Below the pieces are notes generated by a model. The model made no database searches and was not told where the DNA came from. It saw only the letters and a list, made by a program, of their open reading frames with translations. 64,000 nucleotides of DNA from Rhodoplanes serenus (GTDB taxonomy: Bacteria > Pseudomonadota > Alphaproteobacteria > Rhizobiales > Xanthobacteraceae), in assembly GCA_945893145.1 (NCBI GenBank), contig CAMDDZ010000025.1, positions 196-64,195 of the forward strand, in the 5' to 3' direction. Made by a program: the position numbers and the translations under genes. Shown here piece after piece: positions 5,792 to 16,622 of the stretch; the first letter of the stretch is position 1; each line of letters starts with the position of its first letter.

Positions 5792-7159
5792 CTACCGCGG
5801 CCGGCGCGCAGGCGCTGGCCCCAACGCCACGCCCATCTTGCGCAGGATCGCCTCCGCCGCGCGGATGCCGGAGTCCCAGGCGCCGCCGACCGTGCCCCAC
5901 AGCGTTTCGTGCACGGCCTCGCCCGCGAAGTAGATGCGGTCACGCACGGGCTCGGTCAGAATCCCGCGCGCGCTCTGGTTTCCCGGCGCCGCGGCTGCGA
6001 TTGCGCCCAAGGCCCAGGGCTCGGCATTCCATCGCGTCGCATGGCTGCGCTTCACCGCCTTGCGAATGTCAGCGCCATAAAGGTTGGCGAGCCATTCCGT
6101 CGCGAAATCGATCATCGCGCGCTCGCCCTTGGCCGAAAGCTCGCGGCCGAAGCTGCCGCCGACATCGACCACCGCGAGCGGTGTGCCCGAGACATTGGCG
6201 AGCAGGGCCGCGGTGCGTTTGCCGTCCGATTTCTCAAACACCAGCTCATCGGGCTGCAGATTGAGCGGATTGCCGGCAAGCTCCAACGCAATGTGATCGA
6301 GACTGCCAAGCTTGAGCGCCGCGATGGCGTCGAGCTGACGCTTGGGCAACTCGGGCTCGAATTTGATCTTGCCCGCCGCCAGCACGCCGGTCGAAGCCGT
6401 GACGATGGCATAGCGGGCGGTGACGACGCCCTTTGCGGTGTGCACATCGACGCGCGCGGCGGCTGGCGTGACGATTCTCGTCACCGGCGACGAAAACTGG
6501 GCCGGCATGCCCGCGGCGAGCCGGGCGAGCAGCGCGCCGTAACCCTGGCGGCAGAACACAGCGCTGTCGCGCGGCGCCGACTTGGTGACGTCCACGGCCG
6601 AAAGCTCGTTCAGGTCTTTGCCGAACGGATAGGCGCCAAGCACGAACTCGGCCACCGGCTGCCAATCGCCAAGATTGCGCGGCAGCGCTCGCGCGCAATT
6701 GACGTCGGTCTTGCCCTGCGCGGCTTCGGCGATGCCGCGATTGGAACGGACCAGCGCGTCGAGAAAATCCTCAAGTTCGTTTTCTCGCGCATTGCGTTGG
6801 CCGATGCGGACCCGTTGACCGGTCGGCGCCGGATAGACGTTGAGCTCGGTCCACGACGTCGCCTTGGTCACGGGATTGTCGGGCCCGTAGGCCCAGTGCG
6901 CGCCGAGATCGAACGGAACACCGAATATTTTGGTGTCGGTGATGCAGCGTCCGCCGAGCCGAGCCGCCGCCTCGATCACCTCAAAACGGCGGCCGGCGGC
7001 GGCAATCCGCGTTGCGGCCGCGATGCCGGCGGCGCCAGCGCCAATGATCGCCACTTCGGTCTCGGTGGCCGGCGCCGGCGCCGCAAACGCCGGCGACGCC
7101 GCAGCAGCGGCCGAGGCAGCCAGGAAGGAACGGCGAGTAATTGGCATCATGGTTGGCAA
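5792..7159 (-). CDS. Tat-exported flavin-containing amine oxidase family protein
   Basis: Twin-arginine signal ITRRSFLAASAAAAA, followed by the dinucleotide-binding motif VAIIGAGAAGIAAA and an amine-oxidase-like C-terminus. Confidence 0.8.
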   Translation of the reverse strand: MPTMMPITRRSFLAASAAAAASPAFAAPAPATETEVAIIGAGAAGIAAATRIAAAGRRFEVIEAAARLGGRCITDTKIFGVPFDLGAHWAYGPDNPVTKATSWTELNVYPAPTGQRVRIGQRNARENELEDFLDALVRSNRGIAEAAQGKTDVNCARALPRNLGDWQPVAEFVLGAYPFGKDLNELSAVDVTKSAPRDSAVFCRQGYGALLARLAAGMPAQFSSPVTRIVTPAAARVDVHTAKGVVTARYAIVTASTGVLAAGKIKFEPELPKRQLDAIAALKLGSLDHIALELAGNPLNLQPDELVFEKSDGKRTAALLANVSGTPLAVVDVGGSFGRELSAKGERAMIDFATEWLANLYGADIRKAVKRSHATRWNAEPWALGAIAAAAPGNQSARGILTEPVRDRIYFAGEAVHETLWGTVGGAWDSGIRAAEAILRKMGVALGPAPARRPR

Positions 7160-7352
7160 ACGGTTGCGGCAAAAGGCTAGCGAACAGTGAATAACGAAAG
7201 GCTGCGAGGGATGGAAGGAATGACATCACCGTTCGCTATTCGTCATTCACGCCCAGCCCGCCTCAATGAACCGAATGACAAGGAGTTTCAGCTAGATCGG
7301 AGACGCCGAGGTGACGTGCGGCGATAACGCGCGCACCTTTTCGGGGGAAAGC

Positions 7353-8165
7353 ATGGATTGGTCGCTCGACCCAATCGGGCGTACGGTTGCCCGCTACTTG
7401 GACCGGCCTGTTGCCGGCTACGAGCCGTTCACGCCGAGCGACCCCGACGCGTTGCGCGCGACACTCGAGCCCGGCGATGTGCTGCTGGTCGAGGGCAACA
7501 ACCGCATCTCCGGCGTCATCAAGTACCTCACGCAATCGACCTGGTCGCATGCCGCGCTCTACGTCGGCCCGATCGGCGAGCGCACCACCGCTGATGGCGA
7601 ACCGCTGGTGCTGGTCGAGGCCAACATCGGCGAAGGCGTGGTCGGCGTGCCGCTGTCGAAATACCAGCGGCATCACACGCGCATCTGCCGGCCGATCGGA
7701 TTGACCGCCGACGATCGCGCGCGCGTCTGCATCTACACGGCCGAGCGCATCGGCTTCGACTACGACGTGAAGAACATCTTCGATCTGCTGCGCTACCTGT
7801 TTCCGCTGCCGGTGCCGCAGCGCTGGCGGCGGCGGATGATGGCCATGGGCTCCGGGCACCCGACCCGCATCATCTGCTCGGCGCTGATCGCACAGGCGTT
7901 CGAGTCGGTGCGCTATCCGATCTTGCCCAAGGTGACACGCGTCGAGAGCGAGGCGGCACGGCGGGAGATTCTCGAAATCCGCCACTCGTCGCTCTACGCA
8001 CCGCGCGACTTCGACATATCGCCCTACTTCCGGCTGGTGAAGCCCACGGTCGAACGCGGCTTCGACTACCGCGCCATGCAATGGGCCGATGTGGCGCCGG
8101 TCAGTTCGCCACCGCTGGTGGCTCATGCCGGGCCGGTTGCGGCCGCGCCGCAGACCGCGACCTGA
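7353..8165 (+). CDS. YiiX/DUF830-like permuted papain-fold (NlpC/P60 superfamily) protein
   Basis: PGDVLLVEGNNRISGVIKYLTQSTWSHAALYVG block typical of the family. GGGGGA lies upstream of the ATG at 7353. Confidence 0.65.
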   Translation: MDWSLDPIGRTVARYLDRPVAGYEPFTPSDPDALRATLEPGDVLLVEGNNRISGVIKYLTQSTWSHAALYVGPIGERTTADGEPLVLVEANIGEGVVGVPLSKYQRHHTRICRPIGLTADDRARVCIYTAERIGFDYDVKNIFDLLRYLFPLPVPQRWRRRMMAMGSGHPTRIICSALIAQAFESVRYPILPKVTRVESEAARREILEIRHSSLYAPRDFDISPYFRLVKPTVERGFDYRAMQWADVAPVSSPPLVAHAGPVAAAPQTAT

Positions 8166-8199
8166 GATCCTTCTGATTCTGCCGCTTGCGCGTGGCGTA

Positions 8200-8620
8200 G
8201 CCTGTGTCACCGATCCTCCTTGTGCTGCGGACGTGCGCGATCGCCGGGATTTATTCGGCGCCCGGACGCCGTCTCGTTGGTCCCTCGGGAAGCCCGAGGG
8301 GATGAAGCGCCGAGAGGCGCCGGGGCCATAGGCCCCCGCCAGACCAGCGGGTCCGGCACACGCTTGCGAGGCGCGCTGCGCCCGGTTGCGACCAGGCGCT
8401 CGCCTCTCGGCGCTCCATCGCGGCGTTCATAGGCCTCGGGCCGCGCTTGCGAACCGGGGCGCACCGCGCCCTGGCCGTCCAGCAGAGCTCCCTGCGCACG
8501 GATCGTAGTGTCCGTAGGGCGGGGTCCGAGCCTCCCGGGAGCGGGGTTGCGAAACCCGCCCGCAGGCGCCGCGTCCCACCCCGCCAGCACGACGCCTCAT
8601 GATGGCGCCCTCGGATGGGT
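8200..8620. repeat. GC-rich non-coding block of nested inverted repeats (REP-like cluster or structured RNA)
   Basis: Local hairpin CCCTCGG-gaag-CCGAGGG (8282-8300). A long-range 19-nt inverted repeat joins 8301-8319 (GATGAAGCGCCGAGAGGCG) to 8401-8419 (18/19 complementary). TTGCGA-containing units recur. No credible ORF. Confidence 0.5.
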
Positions 8621-8999
8621 AGGACAATAAACCTAGTGGACTTATTTGTTCGATTTGTAAAGTGAAAAAATTCGCGGGGCACGGCGGTTTGGGGACATCC
8701 GCTTCGCCCGGAAAGCGGACCATGTGCGCAAGTCCGGAATGTGGCGATAAGAGACCCATGCAGTACAGCAATAATGATGTTGCTCTGTTACGTCAGCGCT
8801 CGACCGCGCTCCAAGTAAAGCAACGGCAGCCATTTGTGGCGATACATCCCCCAACATCTGCCGCGACGTTGCAGCTTCGCGAACGGCAGAGGTGCCAACA
8901 ACAAAATTCCGATGCCGCCCCGTAAGACTCCGCTCATGACCATCTCATGAGCGAGCATCTTCAATTGGCAATGAGCTGTATTTTTTGATCTGATAGATC

Positions 9000-9458
9000 A
9001 TGACGGTCCACACGAAGCGTCTTCATCTGAATTATACGCCGACGCAACTATTCGACCTGGTTGCAGACGTTGAACGCTATCCGCAGTTCCTGCCCGGTGT
9101 TGCTGCCGCCAGAATTTCCAGACGTAAGGACCAGACGATCTGGGTGGACATGACCATCGGGACAAGCTTTTTACGCAAGCGATTTACAACCGTGGCACTG
9201 CTGGATAGACCGCATCGAATTGATATCAGCAGTCACGACCCGTTGTTCGAGCACTTTCAGCAAAATTGAAAATTCGAGCCTGCCAGCGAGGGCGGAACAC
9301 ATATCGAGTATCAGGTTAATTTCAAATTCCAATCACGGCTGCTGCAAGTTCTGATCGGAGGATTGTTTGCGGAGCGAGCCGCCGAAATGCTGGCCGCTTT
9401 CAAACAGCGGGCACGACAGTTGTACGGCGCTCCATCACTACCAGCAAAGAATGTTTGA
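9000..9458 (+). pseudogene. ratA: RatA/COQ10-type START (SRPBCC) quinone-binding protein gene interrupted by a single in-frame TGA (9267-9269)
   Basis: Both halves align along the whole E. coli RatA length. ...FEHFQQN*KFEP corresponds to ...LIGGWKFTP, so the stop replaces the conserved Trp codon. The same frame then continues to TGA at 9456-9458 (152 codons). Confidence 0.75.
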
Positions 9459-9527
9459 TGGGGGCCAGGGATGCAATCGCGCCCAGGCAATGATCATGCA
9501 GCCGTGCCGAGCCTGAACGCAAAGGTG

Positions 9528-10100
9528 TCAAGCAGGTTCTGGATGTTGGCCCCTGACGCAAACAGACGACATCGCACACTGTGAGCAGCGCCCTGACGGC
9601 ATAGCCTCTGGTTTAAGGCGGGGTTCTGCGCCGAGCGCGTACAGCATGTTTGCCATGATGCAGTACCCTGTGGCGGCGAACCAAACCATTGCACCTCCGA
9701 CAAACACGATGAACGTGGTCCACCAAACGCTATGCGCAAGCACCAGGATGGACGCAACCGAGATATTGATTCCCACCGCAAGATAGATTCGTCGCTCAAG
9801 ATACCAGCGGTCGGTTTGCATGAAATAAAGGTTCCAGCGCGTTGGAGTGTTGGCTCCGAGCATAGGCGTAAGGCCGAATATGCGGAGCGCATTCCCCACG
9901 GGACAAAATCCGGTGAGTGCCACATTGATGGACACAAACCCCGTCGCGGTCACGCTTAGAATCCAGATCGGCTGAAGCAGCAGAGCCAATGCCGCGCCGG
10001 TCAACAGAACAGCGCCAGCGATCAGCCAAACGGTTCTTTCGATATACCAACGGTGAGTGGGAACGATGTAAACGCCTGTGCGGAGCGTCATGATGTTCAC
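9528..10100 (-). CDS. membrane protein with two tandem DUF2892 (YgaP-like) domains
   Basis: Two repeats of the pattern RWY.ER....G....(TM)....TG(F/Y)C, i.e. ...ALTGFCPVGN and ...AATGYCIMAN. Lies downstream of menA on the same strand. Confidence 0.7.
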   Translation of the reverse strand: MNIMTLRTGVYIVPTHRWYIERTVWLIAGAVLLTGAALALLLQPIWILSVTATGFVSINVALTGFCPVGNALRIFGLTPMLGANTPTRWNLYFMQTDRWYLERRIYLAVGINISVASILVLAHSVWWTTFIVFVGGAMVWFAATGYCIMANMLYALGAEPRLKPEAMPSGRCSQCAMSSVCVRGQHPEPA

Positions 10101-10233
10101 CGTCGAAGAGTTAGGACAAAACCGGGTTCAGTCGACACCGCAAAGCGAACGTATCACGGGACGGCAGTTTTCGCCAGGAGGTGACTCGCTCAGCGGTGGC
10201 GCTGGCTCACCGCTGGAACGTGATCGCTCAAGA

Positions 10234-11178
10234 TTAGAGCATCAACCCGAGAGCGAGCATGATGCTAAAAAGGAATTGCAACTGCACAGTCTGAACAAGA
10301 ATTCGATTGAAGATCGGACCGCGCGGCTCATGGGCAAATCGGTAAATGAGTGCCCCCGCCAATGGCAACGCGATAAATGTCGTCCAGACATGTCCGTGCG
10401 GCAGGGTGCGCGCAATGAGGGGCAGCAACGCGAATGGCAGCAACGTCAACCCAGCGTAAATCCAGATTGTGATACGTGGGCCAGCGACAATCGCAAGAGT
10501 CTTTCGGCCGACACGTGTGTCCACTTGGATATCACGATGGTTGTTGACCAGCAGCACCGCTGCCGTCAGCGATCCCACTGCGGCGCCGGCGACGACGGCA
10601 GCTGACGTCAAATGCCCGGTGCAAAGCAAATACGTCCCACCCACGGCACCCAAGCCAAAGAATGCCACGACGAACAGTTCTGCAAACGGAGTATAGGCAA
10701 TCGGAAAAGGACCGCCGGTATAGCCCCAGCCAGACACAATCGACATGACACCCAGTACCAGAATCGGCCAGCCACCGACGAACGCGAGATAGAGGCCCAT
10801 GATCCCCGCCAGCGCGAAGCAAATAATCGCACTGCGATTGACGACGGCGGCGCTCAACAAGCCAGAGCCGGTGGCTCTCGGTGGTCCTATGCGATCAGGG
10901 CCGTCGCCGCCACGCGTGGAATCGGCTGCGTCATTGTGCAAATTAGTCCCGAGCTGAATTAGCGCGCTAGCGACAATGGCTGCCGCAATCGCCCACCAAT
11001 GAACCTTTTTTTCTGCTGCCCAGGCAACAGCTGCGCCAACCGCCACGGGCGTCATCGAAAGACTGAGCGTGCGCGGACGCGCCGCCGTGATCCAGGACGA
11101 CAGGTTCATAACTACGCTCGTCGGCCGATCTACAAACCTTGGCACCGCATGGCGCGATTGGGAAGGCGTGACGCTCAT
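10234..11178 (-). CDS. menA: 1,4-dihydroxy-2-naphthoate polyprenyltransferase-like UbiA-superfamily enzyme
   Basis: NLHNDAADSTRGGD and NNHRDIQVDTRVGRKTLA match the MenA motifs NLANDYGDAVKGSD and NNLRDINSD...GK.TL. About 9 TM helices. The start is uncertain (11178 or 11109); the track start at 11376 is unlikely. Confidence 0.75.
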   Translation of the reverse strand: MSVTPSQSRHAVPRFVDRPTSVVMNLSSWITAARPRTLSLSMTPVAVGAAVAWAAEKKVHWWAIAAAIVASALIQLGTNLHNDAADSTRGGDGPDRIGPPRATGSGLLSAAVVNRSAIICFALAGIMGLYLAFVGGWPILVLGVMSIVSGWGYTGGPFPIAYTPFAELFVVAFFGLGAVGGTYLLCTGHLTSAAVVAGAAVGSLTAAVLLVNNHRDIQVDTRVGRKTLAIVAGPRITIWIYAGLTLLPFALLPLIARTLPHGHVWTTFIALPLAGALIYRFAHEPRGPIFNRILVQTVQLQFLFSIMLALGLML

Positions 11179-11332
11179 CAGTACCGCCGTGCAAGCCGGG
11201 GGCATTGGCCCAGGGTTGTAATAGTTCGACAGGCGATTGTGACGGGCGACGCAGTTGCCCGGCTGCGGGCTTGCCTTACCCGGGCGATTTGAGGAAACGG
11301 ATGCGATCGTTGCGGGTGCTAATTTGGGCAAG

Positions 11333-11348
11333 TGTTCAATATTGAACA
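11333..11348. promoter_or_regulatory. perfect 16-bp palindrome TGTTCAATATTGAACA in the divergent menA / cytochrome-operon control region
   Basis: Read directly. It lies about 155 bp upstream of the likely menA start and about 185 bp upstream of the 11532 ATG. Confidence 0.5.
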
Positions 11349-11531
11349 GACAGCTTGCGGCCTGTGAACGCATCATTCGTAAATGCGGTCCGGTCGCTGG
11401 ACTACAGGATTGTTAAACGCGTCTATACCGCGCTGTTCCCCTCTACCTCAGGCGCGGCGGGTGCGTCGCTCCAAATCGGCCGCGCGATCCGGCCGTCGTC
11501 TGTTAGACGTTACAGCGGGTGAGGTGCCGCG

Positions 11532-12110
11532 ATGCAACTGAACCGCTGGAAATTCATTCTTGTATTGCTTGCAGCCGGTGGCGCGGCGGGCGCCGCAGCG
11601 GTCATTACCACCGTTGAGGTCAATCGCCACACCTCGACTGAGGTCTTCTGCACCTCTTGTCACAGCATGGCCAACTTGGCGAACGATCCGCATTACTTGC
11701 GGTCGGCACATCGTAGCAATCCGCAGGGCGTCAGGCCGAGTTGCGGCGACTGCCACATTCCCAAATCGAACTGGTTTGTCGAGACATACGTGCATGTCAG
11801 TTCGGGGGCACGTGACGTCATCGCCGAGTTTACGAACAGTTTCGACGATCCGAAGATTTGGGAGGCGCGACGCGTCGCGCTCGCACATGAGGTGCGCGAC
11901 CTCATGCGCCGCCAGGACAGCGTGACCTGTCGAAGCTGTCACGCCGCCGCCGACATTCGCCCTGCGAGCGAACGCGGGCAAGCGGCCCATGCGCTGCTGC
12001 GCGAGAGCCGTATGACCTGCATCGATTGCCATTTCAATCTCGTTCATGCCCCGGTGCCGCCGACGGCAGAATTCATTCGCGGCTCGCGGCTCGGCGCAGA
12101 GACCAAGTGA
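11532..12110 (+). CDS. NapC/NirT/NrfH-family membrane-anchored tetrahaem cytochrome c (quinol dehydrogenase type)
   Basis: N-terminal TM anchor plus four CXXCH motifs (CTSCH, CGDCH, CRSCH, CIDCH) in 192 aa. Confidence 0.85.
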   Translation: MQLNRWKFILVLLAAGGAAGAAAVITTVEVNRHTSTEVFCTSCHSMANLANDPHYLRSAHRSNPQGVRPSCGDCHIPKSNWFVETYVHVSSGARDVIAEFTNSFDDPKIWEARRVALAHEVRDLMRRQDSVTCRSCHAAADIRPASERGQAAHALLRESRMTCIDCHFNLVHAPVPPTAEFIRGSRLGAETK

Positions 12111-12129
12111 TCGAATCGGGGAGGATGCA

Positions 12130-13287
12130 ATGAGCTTTCAAAGCACGATACTTAAGCTCCTCGCGGCATCCATTTTATGTGGCGGCATCACGGCCGGAGC
12201 TGCTCTGCTGGTGAGTGCGCCGCATGCGCAAGACGCCGCGCCGTCAGCTGTGTCGCCCCCAGGCATGCTGTCAACTGTCGAGGTCCCGTTCTATGCCGAA
12301 TGGATAGGCTCGCCGCATGCGAGGCGGGCTGCGGAGCCATTCAATCACTGGAACAAGGAAGGTGCCATTCCGGTGGGGTGCGCACGATGCCACTCCACTC
12401 CAGGCTTCCTCGACTATCTGGGTGCTGACGGCACTGTCCCTGGCGTGGTCGACCACCCGGCGCCGGTCGGAACCGTTATCACCTGCGTTGCGTGCCACAA
12501 CACCAAAGCTCGTGCGCTGACGAGCGTGACGTTTCCGTCCGGCCTGACGGTCCAAAATCAGGGCGCCGATGCACGCTGCATGGCCTGCCATCAGGGCGTG
12601 GAATCGACCAGCAATGTCAACAAAGCGATCGCCAACCTTGACGACGATAAGGTCGAACCCAAGCTTCAGTTCATCAATGTGCATTACGCCGCGGCCGGCG
12701 CCATGTTGTTCGGAACCATGGCGCGGGTCGGCTATGAATACCCCGGCAAGATTTACATCGGCCGGTTCCAGCACCGCGAGCCTTATAACCGCTGCACCGC
12801 TTGTCACGAGACGCATACCACGGCGATCAAATTCAACGACTGCGCCGCTTGCCACAGGGAGGTGGTTGACAAGACCTCACTGCACAAAATCCGAGTGAGC
12901 AGGGATGATCGTGACGGCAATAACGACATCAGCGAAGGTGTGGCGCAGGAGATCGATCATCTGCGCGAGCGTCTGCTTGCCGCGATTACGGCCTACGCCA
13001 AGACAGTAGCAGGCAAACCGATCGTCTATGAGATCGATGCCTATCCATATTTCTTTGTCGACACCAATGCCAACGGTGTAGCCGACAAGGACGAGGCTCG
13101 ATTCCCGAACCGCTACAACGCGTGGACGCCGCGGCTGCTCAAGGCAGCCTACAACTATCAATTCATCACCAAGGATCGCGGAGCGTTCGCGCATAACCCG
13201 ACATATGCGGTCGAGCTGCTTTACGACTCCATCAATGATCTCGGCGCAAAGGTGAGCGTTGATCTCGTCAAAGCTAAACGTCCGTGA
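12130..13287 (+). CDS. periplasmic pentahaem c-type cytochrome with helical C-terminal domain, family unassigned
   Basis: Signal peptide. Five CXXCH motifs (CARCH, CVACH, CMACH, CTACH, CAACH) at about residues 84, 119, 150, 222 and 238. GGGGAGGA RBS before the ATG at 12130, 19 nt after the previous gene. Confidence 0.8.
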   Translation: MSFQSTILKLLAASILCGGITAGAALLVSAPHAQDAAPSAVSPPGMLSTVEVPFYAEWIGSPHARRAAEPFNHWNKEGAIPVGCARCHSTPGFLDYLGADGTVPGVVDHPAPVGTVITCVACHNTKARALTSVTFPSGLTVQNQGADARCMACHQGVESTSNVNKAIANLDDDKVEPKLQFINVHYAAAGAMLFGTMARVGYEYPGKIYIGRFQHREPYNRCTACHETHTTAIKFNDCAACHREVVDKTSLHKIRVSRDDRDGNNDISEGVAQEIDHLRERLLAAITAYAKTVAGKPIVYEIDAYPYFFVDTNANGVADKDEARFPNRYNAWTPRLLKAAYNYQFITKDRGAFAHNPTYAVELLYDSINDLGAKVSVDLVKAKRP

Positions 13288-13310
13288 CGATTTGCAGGCT
13301 GGAGATCAAG

Positions 13311-14333
13311 ATGACAAAGCGTTTCGCTGGTTTGGCTGCCGTATTCGGCATGATCGCGCTTGTAGCCACCATCTCGCTTGTATCTCCGGGAGGAGCGCAG
13401 CAAAAGCAACCGGACTCGGTCAACCCGTCCGGGAGCGTTCAGACCGAACAGCAGCTTCTCGATGAGTTGCGGAAGATTCAGGGCCGCGGCACGATCCCGG
13501 ACGTGAAATCCTACGTTCTTGAGCAGCCGGCTGGCCGCGAGTGGCGCATCTTTCACCAAATCTACCTGCATTGGATTGGTGGGATCGCAATCGTCGGAAT
13601 ATTTGTCTTGCTCGCCGTCTTTTACCTCTGGCGAGGCACCTTGCGTTTCGGCGCGCGAGCGGGCCGCACGATGCTGCGCTTTAACGCCTTTGAACGCTTC
13701 GTCCACTGGATGACGGCGGTTTGCTTTATTGTGCTGTCTTTATCTGGCCTGAACATTACGTTCGGCCGGCAACTGCTGCTGCCGCTGATCGGACCGGACG
13801 CTTTCAGCGCATGGTCAATGGCCGCGAAATACGCGCACAACTATCTCAGCTTCCCGTTCACGATCGGCGTGGTGTTGATGTTCTTGATATGGATCGCCAG
13901 CAACCTGCCGACGCGCGTTGACATTGAGTGGCTCAAGCGCGGCGGCGGGATGTTGGGCGGCGAAGAACCGCCTGCCTACAAGTTCAACGCCGGGGAAAAG
14001 CTAATCTTTTGGATCGTCGTGATTGGGGGCGGACTGTCGGCTGCGACTGGTTATTTCTTGCTCTTTCCGTTCTACTTGGCTGAAATTGCCGGGATGCAAG
14101 TGGCCCAGGTCGTTCACAGCGTAGTCGGTGTGCTCTACATCGCGGCGATGCTTGTCCATATCTATATGGGCACGCTTGGAATGGAAGGCGCCTTCGAGGG
14201 CATGGCGAACGGCGAAGTCGATATCAACTGGGCCAAGTCTCACCACTCGCTGTGGTATGATGAAGTAACGGGGATGACGGGCCAAGATAGCGCCCGCATG
14301 CGAACCAGCTCCACAGCGATCAAAACGGAATAG
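13311..14333 (+). CDS. FdnI/FdoI-like (formate dehydrogenase gamma-type) dihaem cytochrome b with N-terminal signal/periplasmic extension
   Basis: Blocks FERFVHWMTA, AKYAHNYLSFP and VVHSVVGVLYIAAMLVHIYMG supply four TM histidines. C-terminal GEVDINWAKSHHSLWYDE. GGAGA RBS before the ATG at 13311. Confidence 0.8.
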   Translation: MTKRFAGLAAVFGMIALVATISLVSPGGAQQKQPDSVNPSGSVQTEQQLLDELRKIQGRGTIPDVKSYVLEQPAGREWRIFHQIYLHWIGGIAIVGIFVLLAVFYLWRGTLRFGARAGRTMLRFNAFERFVHWMTAVCFIVLSLSGLNITFGRQLLLPLIGPDAFSAWSMAAKYAHNYLSFPFTIGVVLMFLIWIASNLPTRVDIEWLKRGGGMLGGEEPPAYKFNAGEKLIFWIVVIGGGLSAATGYFLLFPFYLAEIAGMQVAQVVHSVVGVLYIAAMLVHIYMGTLGMEGAFEGMANGEVDINWAKSHHSLWYDEVTGMTGQDSARMRTSSTAIKTE

Positions 14334-14420
14334 CCGGACACGAACGCGGGCAAGCGGCTCGTTGAGCGTGGTCGCCAGCTATTGCGTACAGGCGGCGGGT
14401 TGAAATGTGATCGCCGCGTC

Positions 14421-14480
14421 ATCCAAAAAAGGGCAGCGCGGCAAGCGGGAGCGCGCAGCACCTTGCCGCTCCCGCCCCTA
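14421..14480 (-). terminator. GC-rich hairpin followed by T6 on the minus strand (orphan intrinsic-terminator-like element)
   Basis: Minus strand reads CGGGAGCGGCAAGGTGCTGCGCGCTCCCGCTTGCCGCGCTGCCCTTTTTT. No minus-strand gene lies upstream of it. Confidence 0.35.
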
Positions 14481-14514
14481 GCCCCCACCTTTGTCCGGTT
14501 ACACGGAGGGACGG

Positions 14515-15267
14515 ATGTTCGAAGCGGCCACCAAGGCCTTGGCCCAGATGACCTCGCCGCCGTTCCGGCGGGTGCTGCTGAAATCCATCGGACTTGCGCT
14601 CGTCATGATCGTGCTGATCGCGATCGGCTTGCAGCGCGTGCTGTCGTTCCTCGCCACGACCGGCGGGACCTGGGCCGAGCAGACACTCGGACCGCAGGCG
14701 CACACGCCGGCCGCTGTGCTGGTCTGGGTGCTCGCCATTCTGTCGGGCCTTGGCGTCATCACCGGCGCGCTGTTCCTGATGCCGGCGGTGACGGCCTTCG
14801 TCGGCAGCTTCTTCGTCGATGAGATCGCGGCCGAGGTCGAGCGCACGCATTATCCGGCCGATCCGCCCGGCCAGCCGCTCCCGCTCTGGCGTGCGTTGTA
14901 CGAGGGCACCAAGACCGCGCTGCTCGCGATATTGGTCTATCTGTGCGCGCTGCCGTTTTTGCTGCTAGCTGGCTTCGGCCTTGTCATCATGTTCTTCGCC
15001 ACCTCGTACCTGCTCAGCCGCGAATATTTTCTGCTCGCCGCCATGCGGTTCCATCCGCCAGAGCAAGCGAAAGCGCTCCGCTCGGCACACCGCGGCACGA
15101 TTTTCCTGTCCGGCATGCTGATCGGGATTTTCGTATCGATCCCGGGGATCAATCTCGCGACGCCGCTGTTCGCCATGGCGATGATGGTGCACATGCACAA
15201 GCGGATCGCGGGGCGGCGGATCGAGCTGCTGCCGCCGGTGAGAGGGCGAATAGCGAATAGGGAGTAG
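14515..15267 (+). CDS. CysZ/EI24-family (DUF540) membrane protein
   Basis: Multi-TM protein with a CysZ-like layout. GGAGGG RBS before the ATG at 14515. Confidence 0.6.
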   Translation: MFEAATKALAQMTSPPFRRVLLKSIGLALVMIVLIAIGLQRVLSFLATTGGTWAEQTLGPQAHTPAAVLVWVLAILSGLGVITGALFLMPAVTAFVGSFFVDEIAAEVERTHYPADPPGQPLPLWRALYEGTKTALLAILVYLCALPFLLLAGFGLVIMFFATSYLLSREYFLLAAMRFHPPEQAKALRSAHRGTIFLSGMLIGIFVSIPGINLATPLFAMAMMVHMHKRIAGRRIELLPPVRGRIANRE

Positions 15268-15320
15268 CGAATAGAGGACTGTCGCTCTTAACCATTCGCT
15301 ATTCGCTACTCACTATTCGC
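15246..15320. repeat. inverted arrays of four tandem heptamers (GCGAATA-type) forming a 21-bp stem across two convergent gene ends
   Basis: Left array GCGAATA GCGAATA GGGAGTA GCGAATA (15246-15273). Right array CATTCGC TATTCGC TACTCAC TATTCGC (15293-15320). Positions 15253-15273 pair with 15300-15320 (20/21). Both stop codons lie inside the arms. Confidence 0.8.
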
Positions 15321-16091
15321 CACTGATTTTCCCGGCCACTTGCAGATGTCGGCGATGATGCACTTCTCGCACAGCGGCTTGCGCGCCAGGCACGTATAAC
15401 GCCCGTGCAGGATCAGCCAGTGGTGGGCGTGCAGCATGTATTTTTCTGGAATGACCTCCAGGAGCTTCAACTCGACCGCGAGCGGATCCTTGCCCGGCGC
15501 GAGGCCGGTGCGGTTGCCGATGCGGAAAATGTGAGTATCGACCGCCATGGTGGGCTGGCCGAACGCCATGTTGAGCACGACGTTCGCGGTCTTTCGCCCG
15601 ACCCCGGGCAACTCCTGCAACGCCTCGCGGGTGTTGGGCACCTGGCTGCCGTGCTCAGCGATCAGCTTCTCTGACAGCGCCACCACGTTCTTCGCCTTCA
15701 TGCGAAAAAGCCCGATGGTCTTGATCAGGTCACGCACGCGCGCCTCGCCGAGCGCCGCCATCTTTTCGGGCGTGTCGGCAAGTTTGAACAGCGCGGGGGT
15801 CGCCTTGTTGACGCCGGCGTCGGTGGCCTGCGCCGATAGCACGACCGCGACAACCAGCGTGAACGGGTTGATGTGGTGAAGCTCGCCCTTGGGCTCCGGC
15901 ATGGCGGCCTGGAAGCGGCGGAAGGCTTCCTCGACCTCGGCTTTGGACCAGGGCGGCGTGTCGCCGTGCAACGCCTTCTGATCGGCCTTGGCTTGCGCCT
16001 TCGGCGGCTTCTTCCTGGCCGCCTTGCCCTTGCGCGCTTTGGTCAGCGCTTTGGCAATCCGGGCCTTCCGCTTCGTCGTTTTTGTCGCCAT
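15306..16091 (-). CDS. nth: endonuclease III with Lys/Ala-rich N-terminal extension
   Basis: HhH-GPD core and a C-terminal 4Fe-4S Cys cluster (C..C..C...C region CLARKPLCEKCIIADIC). N-terminal MATKTTKRKARIAKALTKARKGKAARKKPPKAQAKA. Confidence 0.9.
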   Translation of the reverse strand: MATKTTKRKARIAKALTKARKGKAARKKPPKAQAKADQKALHGDTPPWSKAEVEEAFRRFQAAMPEPKGELHHINPFTLVVAVVLSAQATDAGVNKATPALFKLADTPEKMAALGEARVRDLIKTIGLFRMKAKNVVALSEKLIAEHGSQVPNTREALQELPGVGRKTANVVLNMAFGQPTMAVDTHIFRIGNRTGLAPGKDPLAVELKLLEVIPEKYMLHAHHWLILHGRYTCLARKPLCEKCIIADICKWPGKSVANSE

Positions 16092-16115
16092 CTTTCCCTT
16101 ATAACGAGTGTCATC

Positions 16116-16622
16116 ATGCCCGACATCGAGACCGGCCGCGAGCCCACGCTATTCTCGGCGATCATCACGCCGCACCGCTCGCTGTCGAGCCGAGGCTTCC
16201 TGCTGGTGATGCTTCTGGTTGGCGGCTCAAGCTTCGCCGCGGGCCTGGTGTTCTATCTGATCGGCGCCTGGCCGGTGGTGGGCTTCCTCGGCCTCGACGT
16301 GCTGCTGGTGTACTGGGCGTTCCGCGCCAACTACCGCGCCGCTGCGGCGTTCGAGGAGGTGACGGTGACGGCCTCCGAACTGCGGCTGCGCAAGGTCAGC
16401 CACCGCGGCCAGACCGCGGAATGGACGCTCAATCCGGTGTGGACCACGCTCGACCGTGAGACACACGAAGACTTTGGCCTGCTCCAGCTTTACTTGGTGT
16501 CGCGCGGCAAACGCGTGCCGGTCGCGGCTTTTTTGGCGCCCAAGGAACGCGAGAGTTTTGCTACCGCGCTGTCGGCGGCACTCGGCGAGGCGAAGCGCGG
16601 GCCGACGCGCACGCTGCATTGA
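16116..16622 (+). CDS. DUF2244 family integral membrane protein
   Basis: Two TM helices followed by a conserved soluble part (TASELRLRKVSHRGQ...WTLNPVW). Start taken at the ATG at 16116. Confidence 0.65.
   Translation: MPDIETGREPTLFSAIITPHRSLSSRGFLLVMLLVGGSSFAAGLVFYLIGAWPVVGFLGLDVLLVYWAFRANYRAAAAFEEVTVTASELRLRKVSHRGQTAEWTLNPVWTTLDRETHEDFGLLQLYLVSRGKRVPVAAFLAPKERESFATALSAALGEAKRGPTRTLH

Follow-up and report, generated by a model that had tools for sequence, protein, structure and literature searches.

A lower-GC insert with multihaem cytochrome genes and an orphan MenA-type gene in a Rhodoplanes contig

The subject of this report is an insert of 6.3 kb that lies between a yiiX-like gene and cysZ in a 64,000-nucleotide stretch of DNA (the window) from contig CAMDDZ010000025.1 of the Rhodoplanes serenus assembly GCA_945893145.1. 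The host is an uncultured soil alphaproteobacterium of the family Xanthobacteraceae, and its assembly is fragmented and resembles a metagenome-assembled genome (MAG), with 161 contigs and a completeness of 95%. The insert consists of two parts, namely a host-type, structured dispersed repeat of 0.5 kb and a cassette of 5.5 kb, the genes of which encode a RatA/START protein, a protein with tandem DUF2892 domains, a MenA-type prenyltransferase, and three cytochromes. This gene content had been read from the DNA in an earlier note, and profile searches bore it out. The features of the locus, where GC denotes guanine plus cytosine and GC3 the GC fraction at third codon positions, are as follows.

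7311-8165, plus strand: left host flank, yiiX/YaeF-like permuted papain amidase (Peptidase_C92; PF05708), GC3 0.86
8219-8745 (end approximate), plus strand: a copy of the dispersed repeat, which is structured, non-coding, and polar, GC 0.69 (host-like)
9000-9458, plus strand: ratA/COQ10-like START gene, PF03364 at 1.7e-28 when read through, GC3 0.556
9528-10100, minus strand: membrane protein with two YgaP-like transmembrane (DUF2892) domains, PF11127 in two stretches, called start 10091
10234-11109, minus strand: MenA-type 1,4-dihydroxy-2-naphthoate polyprenyltransferase, TIGR00751, reading frame open to 11376 and called start at 11109
11110-11531, no strand: control region from which menA and napC diverge, containing a palindrome of 16 bp (11333-11348)
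11532-12110, plus strand: NapC/NirT membrane-anchored tetrahaem quinol dehydrogenase, PF03264 at 9.3e-44 over 168 residues, four CXXCH motifs
12130-13287, plus strand: periplasmic pentahaem cytochrome c of 385 residues, five CXXCH motifs and no CXXCK, single copy in the genome
13311-14333, plus strand: di-haem cytochrome b of the formate dehydrogenase gamma (Fdh3C/FdnI) type, TIGR01583, with an N-terminal extension
14334-14453, no strand: right tail of the insert, including a run of A6 and the 5' arm of a hairpin that is completed on its 3' side by host sequence
14454-15267, plus strand: right host flank, a promoter-like motif and cysZ/EI24 (NF009407, 296 bits), ATG at 14515, GC3 0.85

The first gene of the cassette, ratA, is interrupted by an in-frame TGA at 9267-9269. 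This TGG to TGA change replaces an invariant tryptophan, and the frame beyond it is open to 9458. Seven homologues and the resident paralogue all have tryptophan at this position, and all three assemblies that carry the cassette share the TGA. The match to PF03364 was obtained only with the TGA read as tryptophan. On the opposite strand are located the genes for the tandem-DUF2892 protein, which is conserved more strongly than any other protein of the module (81-82% identity to its counterparts at the loci L015 and L033 described below), and for the MenA-type enzyme, which is the only one of its kind in the genome. The latter passes the menA equivalog model TIGR00751 with 152.9 bits against a cut-off of 102.15 and falls just below the cut-off of NF004751, the closest NCBIfam equivalog (249.4 against 264). 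Its matches to UbiA, chlorophyll synthase, and other UbiA subfamilies are negligible.

The three cytochrome genes follow one another on the plus strand. The first product contains the N-terminal membrane helix, the four CXXCH motifs, and the profile match that place it in the NapC/NirT family, and it scores below the NCBIfam cut-offs for TorC, NapC, and NrfH. The pentahaem cytochrome ends in a haem-free C-terminal domain of ~120 residues. Its Pfam matches are to generic c3/c7 models only, it matches no NCBIfam family, and the best hit in a phmmer search against the Protein Data Bank (PDB), with an E-value of 0.06, was to ribosomal proteins. Its identity as an NrfA or an octahaem reductase was considered and rejected, there being no CXXCK motif, no family match, and no similarity in sequence or fold. 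On the basis of its sequence, the protein is assigned to an uncharacterised family whose homologues form at least 892 clusters, nearly all of them unnamed. In the GTDB, the family is distributed over the Xanthobacteraceae, other Hyphomicrobiales, the Paracoccaceae, Hoeflea, the Rhodospirillales, and the Chloroflexota. The cytochrome b passes the formate dehydrogenase (FDH) gamma model TIGR01583 with 178 bits against a cut-off of 115.85, and neither an FDH alpha nor an FDH beta subunit is encoded in the island. A periplasmic fdh3 ABC operon is located elsewhere in the host genome, on contig C16 (G000:C16:9728-14453).

The composition of the island differs from that of its surroundings by every measure applied. 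The GC content of 8621-14490 is 0.577, as compared to 0.659 and 0.652 for the two flanks and 0.639 for the 5.49-Mb genome. When the genome is divided into windows of 5.87 kb, the standard deviation of the GC content is 0.019, and only 1.35% of the windows are as low as the island. For the island, the tetranucleotide distance to the genome mean, symmetrised over both strands, is 0.0254, as compared to 0.0126 ± 0.0038 for 874 genome windows, of which 2.1% are as distant. The six island genes have GC3 values of 0.556-0.718, which fall within the lowest 0.03-6% of the genome, whereas the adjacent genes have values of 0.80-0.86 and a proxy set of 3447 genes has a mean of 0.808 ± 0.05. A lower-GC segment, as had been claimed, is thus evident in GC, GC3, and tetranucleotide statistics alike. 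The limits of 8621 and 14490 originally assigned to it had to be redrawn, however. Homology to relatives stops at ~8102, within the variable C-terminus of the Peptidase_C92 gene, and resumes at 14454-14461. The insert is accordingly wider, extending from ~8166 to ~14453, and it leaves the cysZ promoter intact.

The site occupied by the insert is empty in related genomes. In a DNA search of 40 relatives, at least 21 congeners were found to have the yiiX-like gene immediately next to cysZ, separated by 70-250 bp, and two further metagenomic relatives show gaps of 77 and 58 bp. Counting all of these, at least 23 relatives have the empty site, the two genes being 58-250 bp apart. The Peptidase_C92 gene is 81-87% identical in nucleotide sequence to those of the congeners up to ~8102, and only its C-terminal tail is variable. 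On the other side, the motif CGCAGCAC-CTTGCC, with CTTGCC beginning at 14462, precedes the cysZ ATG by ~55 bp in every congener aligned and looks like the -35 region of cysZ. The pentahaem gene, in contrast to its flanks, is sporadic: it is absent from all 26 congeners and present in 7 of 400 sampled genomes of the family, which represent seven genera and include Xanthobacteraceae bacterium SMAG_U15078. An empty-site allele from the same species was not encountered, and all contigs with an exact copy of CysZ carry the island. A closer relative was sought by means of Nth, and the best Nth relatives proved to be no nearer than the congeners; the flanking genes show at most 87% nucleotide identity to any sampled relative.

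Two other public assemblies also contain this cassette, in each case linked to cysZ, nth, and a DUF2244 gene. A contig from the ENA differs by two single-nucleotide polymorphisms over 8264 bp, and a Logan contig is identical over 6855 bp. Both contigs end inside the left-border repeat, and both reproduce the right junction and the whole cassette, which speaks against a chimeric join. Taken together, the empty site, the sporadic pentahaem gene, and the occurrence of the module with the same gene order in unrelated contexts (see below) firmly support the earlier suggestion of horizontal acquisition: the insertion lies downstream of the stop codon of the yiiX-like gene and upstream of the cysZ promoter, which is intact. 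In another metagenomic relative, a different insertion of ~5.5 kb is found between nth and cysZ (L176:8494-13837), and its cargo comprises TctC-family genes, an aldolase, and an FAD monooxygenase. The neighbourhood is thus variable in more than one lineage.

The cassette is not peculiar to this genome. The clade of pentahaem genes to which that of the window belongs was surveyed at 31 loci, 30 of them other than the window. The NapC and pentahaem genes are adjacent at 30 of the 31 loci, a MenA-type gene is present at 27 of the 31, and RatA recurs among them. Locus L015 has the gene order of the window, with two DUF2892 domains and MenA on one side and NapC, the pentahaem protein, and the cytochrome b on the other, and locus L033, from a Xanthobacteraceae MAG, also contains RatA. 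Two arrangements can be distinguished. In the first, represented by the window, L015, and L033, menA is divergent from napC and is accompanied by a DUF2892 gene. In the second, represented by ~20 loci, the genes ratA, a second type of menA, napC, and the pentahaem gene all run in one direction. The MenA proteins of the second arrangement are only 28-33% identical to that of the window, and the sole copy tested (L035) passes TIGR00751. That two divergent MenA lineages are tied to one pair of cytochromes is good evidence of functional coupling.

At 18 of the 30 other loci, the genes lie beside a convergent operon for a periplasmic formate dehydrogenase (fdh3 CBA). Besides its alpha subunit, this neighbouring operon encodes a beta subunit of the FDH3 type (NF038355, 342 against 240) and a gamma cytochrome b, with mobA, mobB, and fdhD nearby. 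The FDH alpha and beta genes and those for the molybdenum cofactor (Moco), which are part of the loci of most relatives, are missing from the cassette of the window. From these comparisons, the cassette is identified as a conserved accessory module of soil Hyphomicrobiales. We have found no description of this gene combination in the literature. As a genomic island the segment is ordinary; what it carries is a conserved, uncharacterised respiratory module in which MenA is an orphan.

More distant homologues of the pentahaem protein occur in other settings. A clade of ~50% identity from Hoeflea and the Paracoccaceae (L084, L087-L091, L097, L105, L107, and others) has an operon resembling nqrABCDEF beside the pentahaem homologue at 13-16 of 38 loci. 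The homologues at nine Chloroflexota loci (L081, L086, L092, L093, L096, L100, L101, L109, and L112) are of ~650-670 residues and contain two tandem pentahaem units.

In a maximum-likelihood tree of the pentahaem proteins, the sister of the window protein is that of metagenome contig L014 (82% identity, support 100/98), followed by that of metagenome contig L015 (78%, 99/92), and both nest within a clade of soil Hyphomicrobiales MAGs. In nucleotide sequence the cassette is 70-78% identical to its best relatives, so that none of the lineages sampled is a recent donor. The contigs with the closest copies have uniformly low GC contents of 0.57-0.61, and the GC3 values of their orthologues, 0.56-0.73, match those of the island, which indicates that the cassette retains the composition of a lower-GC donor lineage. 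By composition and phylogeny, the donor is placed in a lineage of ~57-61% GC within the soil Hyphomicrobiales. The earlier note had suggested an old or non-canonical acquisition, and the data do not bear out an old one: with GC3 equal to that of the donor-like orthologues there is no visible amelioration and no sign of age. The cytochrome b of the island is 71% identical to the syntenic gene of L015 and 59% identical to the resident fdh3 gamma subunit on contig C16, and thus it came with the module rather than by local duplication. The best explanation for the locus as a whole, to which we assign a probability of about 0.7, is the insertion of a repeat and a donor-type cassette that holds a conserved accessory respiratory module.

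How the cassette entered is less apparent from its ends. There is no tRNA gene in positions 1-30000 of the window, none of the 17 tyrosine recombinase matches in the genome lies on the island contig, and direct repeats of 14 nucleotides or more do not bracket the segment. Only microhomologies of 5-7 bp (CTTGC and TGCCGCT) are found at the junctions. The island shares with tRNA-linked islands an atypical composition, absence from the syntenic site, and sporadic spread, but has no integrase or transposase, tRNA target, or att repeats. The earlier note had reported just such a lack of mobility signatures, and this holds for tRNA genes, recombinases on the contig, and bracketing repeats; what it had missed is that the left border is formed by a repeat with ~47 copies in the genome. 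The block at 8200-8620 that had been described as GC-rich hairpins is indeed structured and GC-rich, but it is not unique spacer DNA: positions 8219 to ~8745 are one copy of this dispersed repeat.

The repeat is composed of an L arm (8219-8312), a middle segment that occurs in two subtypes, and an R arm (8526 to ~8745) with an AT-richer tail. The copies, of 450-590 bp, are often found at contig ends, and contigs often break inside them. Copies are located on host contigs C59, C19, C109, C51, C100, C10, C90, C35, C48, C103, C50, C2, C3, C14, C13, and C125 of G000, and ~30 are partial. An RNAalifold analysis of 17 full copies gave 101 consensus base pairs, 16 of which show compensatory changes, and the fold includes three consecutive swaps from AU/UA/UA to GC/CG/GC. 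A scan of positions 7000-16500 against Rfam (E ≤ 1) revealed no relevant family, the only matches being two spurious ones to miRNAs. A blastn search with the repeat against plasmids gave no match, and no terminal inverted repeats were found in it. Sub-modules of the repeat are present in 18 of 26 congeners.

The DNA on the two sides of the repeat is not alike. Averaged over 36 copies, the GC content beyond the R arm is 0.59-0.60 for ~2.5-3 kb, some four GC points under the genome mean, whereas that on the L-arm side equals the mean. GC is lower on the right flank than on the left for 16 of 18 full copies and for 21 of 25 congener loci, and the median GC3 of the nearest gene is ~0.72 on the right and ~0.84 on the left. 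At the three loci examined, both the repeat and the low-GC DNA were absent from the syntenic site of the congener. The repeat has a defined 3' end, beyond which the copies diverge. The repeats thus mark insertion-prone sites genome-wide.

Since the 3' side of the repeat is systematically low in GC and strain-specific, a route of insertion linked to the repeat is possible. The repeat might be either a landing pad, with foreign DNA entering at its 3' end as at tRNA genes, or a vehicle. The polarity in GC and GC3, the paired absence of repeat and low-GC DNA from the congener sites, and the defined 3' end all favour such a link. On the other hand, no recombinase or transposase is associated with the repeats, the genes on their right flanks are unrelated to each other, and the end of the element is not repeated at the far side of the island. 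The repeat moreover has the GC content of the host and is absent from donor-like contigs, tRNA genes are not enriched near its copies, and at one locus the low-GC DNA, 540 bp from the element, is an ordinary islet at a tRNA-Thr gene, which has its own att repeats of 23 bp. On balance, we regard repeat-linked entry as doubtful, although it fares better than the other alternatives discussed below. The more specific notion of an RNA-gene-like landing pad, that is, a host-encoded element present in many copies that captures foreign DNA at its 3' end in the manner of tRNA genes, is a little less probable still. If it were true, such pads would provide dozens of insertion sites per genome and would explain the entry of cassettes without integrases. 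The one-sided association between the repeat and low-GC DNA also gives a clue to the way in which islands devoid of mobility genes insert.

Two simpler accounts of the repeat family were tried and discarded. Linkage to tRNA genes is not a general rule, given that a tRNA lies within 8 kb to the right of 3 of 40 copies as compared to ~4.4 expected by chance; att-type repeats were found at only one of the three tRNA-bounded loci, and no integrases were found at these three loci, which are on contigs C3 and C59. Nor do the repeats behave as an autonomous element, in that the copies share no neighbouring gene other than members of common paralogue families such as TctC. The islet mentioned above (G000:C3:115167-117333; L151 5168-7334) comprises a tRNA-Thr(CGT) gene, then ~2.1 kb of 48-53% GC, then a directly repeated 23-bp copy of the tRNA 3' end; it is of the classical kind but degenerate, with no integrase found in it.

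Turning to function, ubiquinone is regarded as the quinone of Xanthobacteraceae and related soil alphaproteobacteria, and the host possesses a bona fide UbiA. The pathways that supply 1,4-dihydroxy-2-naphthoate (DHNA), the substrate of MenA, were sought in its genome. The best scores against MenB and MenD are below the cut-offs (238 against 343 and 65 against 244, respectively), and no MqnA or MqnD of the futalosine pathway was found in this 95%-complete genome. The MenB-like match is to a crotonase at G000:C48:29646-30416 that may be BadI-like. In four other carriers of the module, likewise, no MenD, MqnA, or MqnD was detected. With no DHNA pathway in any of the five carriers tested, the host included, the MenA of the module is an orphan.

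We propose tentatively, and at somewhat less than even odds, that the module installs a second, naphthoquinone-based respiratory branch in a ubiquinone organism. MenA would prenylate DHNA, which would have to be scavenged because no carrier tested can make it, and the START and DUF2892 proteins would handle the lipid quinone. The FdnI-like cytochrome b would reduce the naphthoquinone at the cytoplasmic face with electrons supplied from the periplasm, the most plausible source being Fdh3AB, the alpha and beta subunits of the periplasmic formate dehydrogenase of the host, or else the pentahaem protein. NapC would then re-oxidise the quinol at the periplasmic face and pass the electrons by way of the pentahaem cytochrome to a periplasmic acceptor, probably under low oxygen. 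The spacer between menA and napC at L015 contains a canonical FNR/FixK box, TTGATCTTAATCAA, at positions 9321-9334, which suggests low-oxygen control in a relative.

Several observations weigh against this interpretation. The uptake of DHNA is an assumption, and the MenA-type enzyme might use another aromatic substrate. The ratA gene is broken by its nonsense codon, such that the module is not fully intact in the host and may be decaying there. Unlike at L015, an FNR/FixK box was not found in the menA-napC control region of the window, where the 16-bp palindrome is a different one. The pentahaem protein is without a characterised relative, the best Foldseek E-value being 0.18 for a model of moderate quality with a predicted local distance difference test score (pLDDT) of 67, and in the more distant clade its homologue is located beside nqrABCDEF without NapC, so that its partners are not fixed. 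Finally, no sampled donor exceeds 82% protein identity.

That the cassette was acquired but is non-functional in this host, and is heading for loss, is a possibility we hold to be unlikely. It is suggested by the TGA at the invariant tryptophan of ratA in three assemblies, by the want of a DHNA pathway in the host, by the FDH alpha, FDH beta, and Moco genes that did not come along as they do in most relatives, and by the missing FNR box. The first three of these facts qualify the statement in the earlier note that a complete functional module had been delivered: the genes are functionally coherent, but ratA carries a nonsense codon, no DHNA supply is encoded, and the FDH and Moco genes were not delivered. 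Against decay, the five remaining open reading frames are intact and equal in length to their orthologues, and a UGA at a tryptophan codon can be partly read through. Four other carriers also have no DHNA pathway, which makes this a trait of the system rather than of the host, and the host owns an fdh3 operon and a second RatA.

It is also conceivable, though rather improbable, that the prenyltransferase acts on another aromatic head group to give a different lipid cofactor for the cytochromes. The missing MenD and MqnA/D in all five carriers, the score just short of the NF004751 cut-off, and the linkage of two very divergent MenA-type lineages to the module would all be in keeping with such an activity. 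Both the window gene and L035, the only copy tested from the second arrangement, pass TIGR00751, however, and matches to the other UbiA subfamilies are negligible. In addition, NapC/NirT and FdnI-type proteins classically work with naphthoquinones. As for vertical inheritance with loss elsewhere, or a chimeric assembly, the distance of the host from all sampled relatives would allow for a basal position and a single loss, and the assembly is MAG-like and in many pieces, but these explanations are highly improbable given a composition and GC3 like those of the donor and unlike those of the host, the patchy family distribution, the presence of the module in other genomic contexts, the location of both flanks on one contig, and the recovery of the right junction in two further assemblies.

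The proposed respiratory branch has partial counterparts among known systems. As in NrfH-NrfA, CymA and its partners, and cM552-HAO, a tetrahaem NapC/NirT gene lies directly upstream of a gene for a periplasmic multihaem cytochrome. The partner here is not an NrfA, ONR, HAO, or OTR, having no CXXCK motif, family assignment, PDB relative, or fold match, and the unit is extended by an FdnI-like cytochrome b and a MenA gene. Periplasmic formate dehydrogenases with a cytochrome b gamma subunit, such as Escherichia coli FDH-N (FdnGHI) and alphaproteobacterial FDH3, are a second counterpart, in that the island cytochrome b passes the FDH-gamma model. In the window and at L015, however, the gamma-like gene follows the pentahaem gene unaccompanied by genes for a catalytic alpha or an iron-sulfur beta subunit.

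CbcL, CymA, and ImcH have been described as inner-membrane links (PMC6295460). In Geobacter CbcL, a b-type cytochrome membrane domain is joined to a multihaem c domain, and, as proposed here, an FdnI/HydC-like cytochrome b and a multihaem c-type cytochrome connect the quinone pool to the periplasm. In the island the components are encoded as individual proteins, there are five haems instead of nine, and an additional NapC-type protein is present; the likeness is one of description. An enzyme of the MenA/DmkA type without its upstream pathway, tied to a dedicated electron-transfer route, is also known from Lactiplantibacillus plantarum and the FLEET locus of the Firmicutes. L. plantarum has the late steps only and makes menaquinones MK-6/7 when fed DHNA (PMC10746273). 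The host in the present case is a Gram-negative ubiquinone organism, and the module encodes c- and b-type cytochromes in place of the flavoproteins Ndh2, EetA, and PplA. The border repeat, for its part, resembles REP, BIME, and BOX mosaic repeats in being modular, hairpin-rich, and multi-copy, and differs from them in its unusual length (~0.5 kb), its polarity, and the restriction of low-GC DNA to one side. To our knowledge, such one-sided low-GC polarity is not a described property of REP, BIME, or BOX elements.

A transferable cassette with an orphan MenA may challenge the view of Xanthobacteraceae and related soil alphaproteobacteria as ubiquinone organisms, suggesting that in some of them a second quinone branch, of low potential, is fed by a scavenged precursor. 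If this proposal is correct, quinone cross-feeding in soil would be linked to anaerobic or microoxic respiration, and the large pentahaem family, which has no known function, would be given a testable role.

Two minor features of the right edge complete the description. A hairpin followed by T6 had been noted at 14421-14480. The hairpin is present, with its arms split across the junction, but it was not called in a terminator scan, which gives no support to its being a terminator. In addition, an exact repeat of 18 nucleotides, CGAACGCGGGCAAGCGGC, occurs within napC (11969-11986) and again at 14341-14358, just downstream of the cytochrome b stop codon. This duplicate may have been left behind when a rearrangement gave rise to the end of the cassette.

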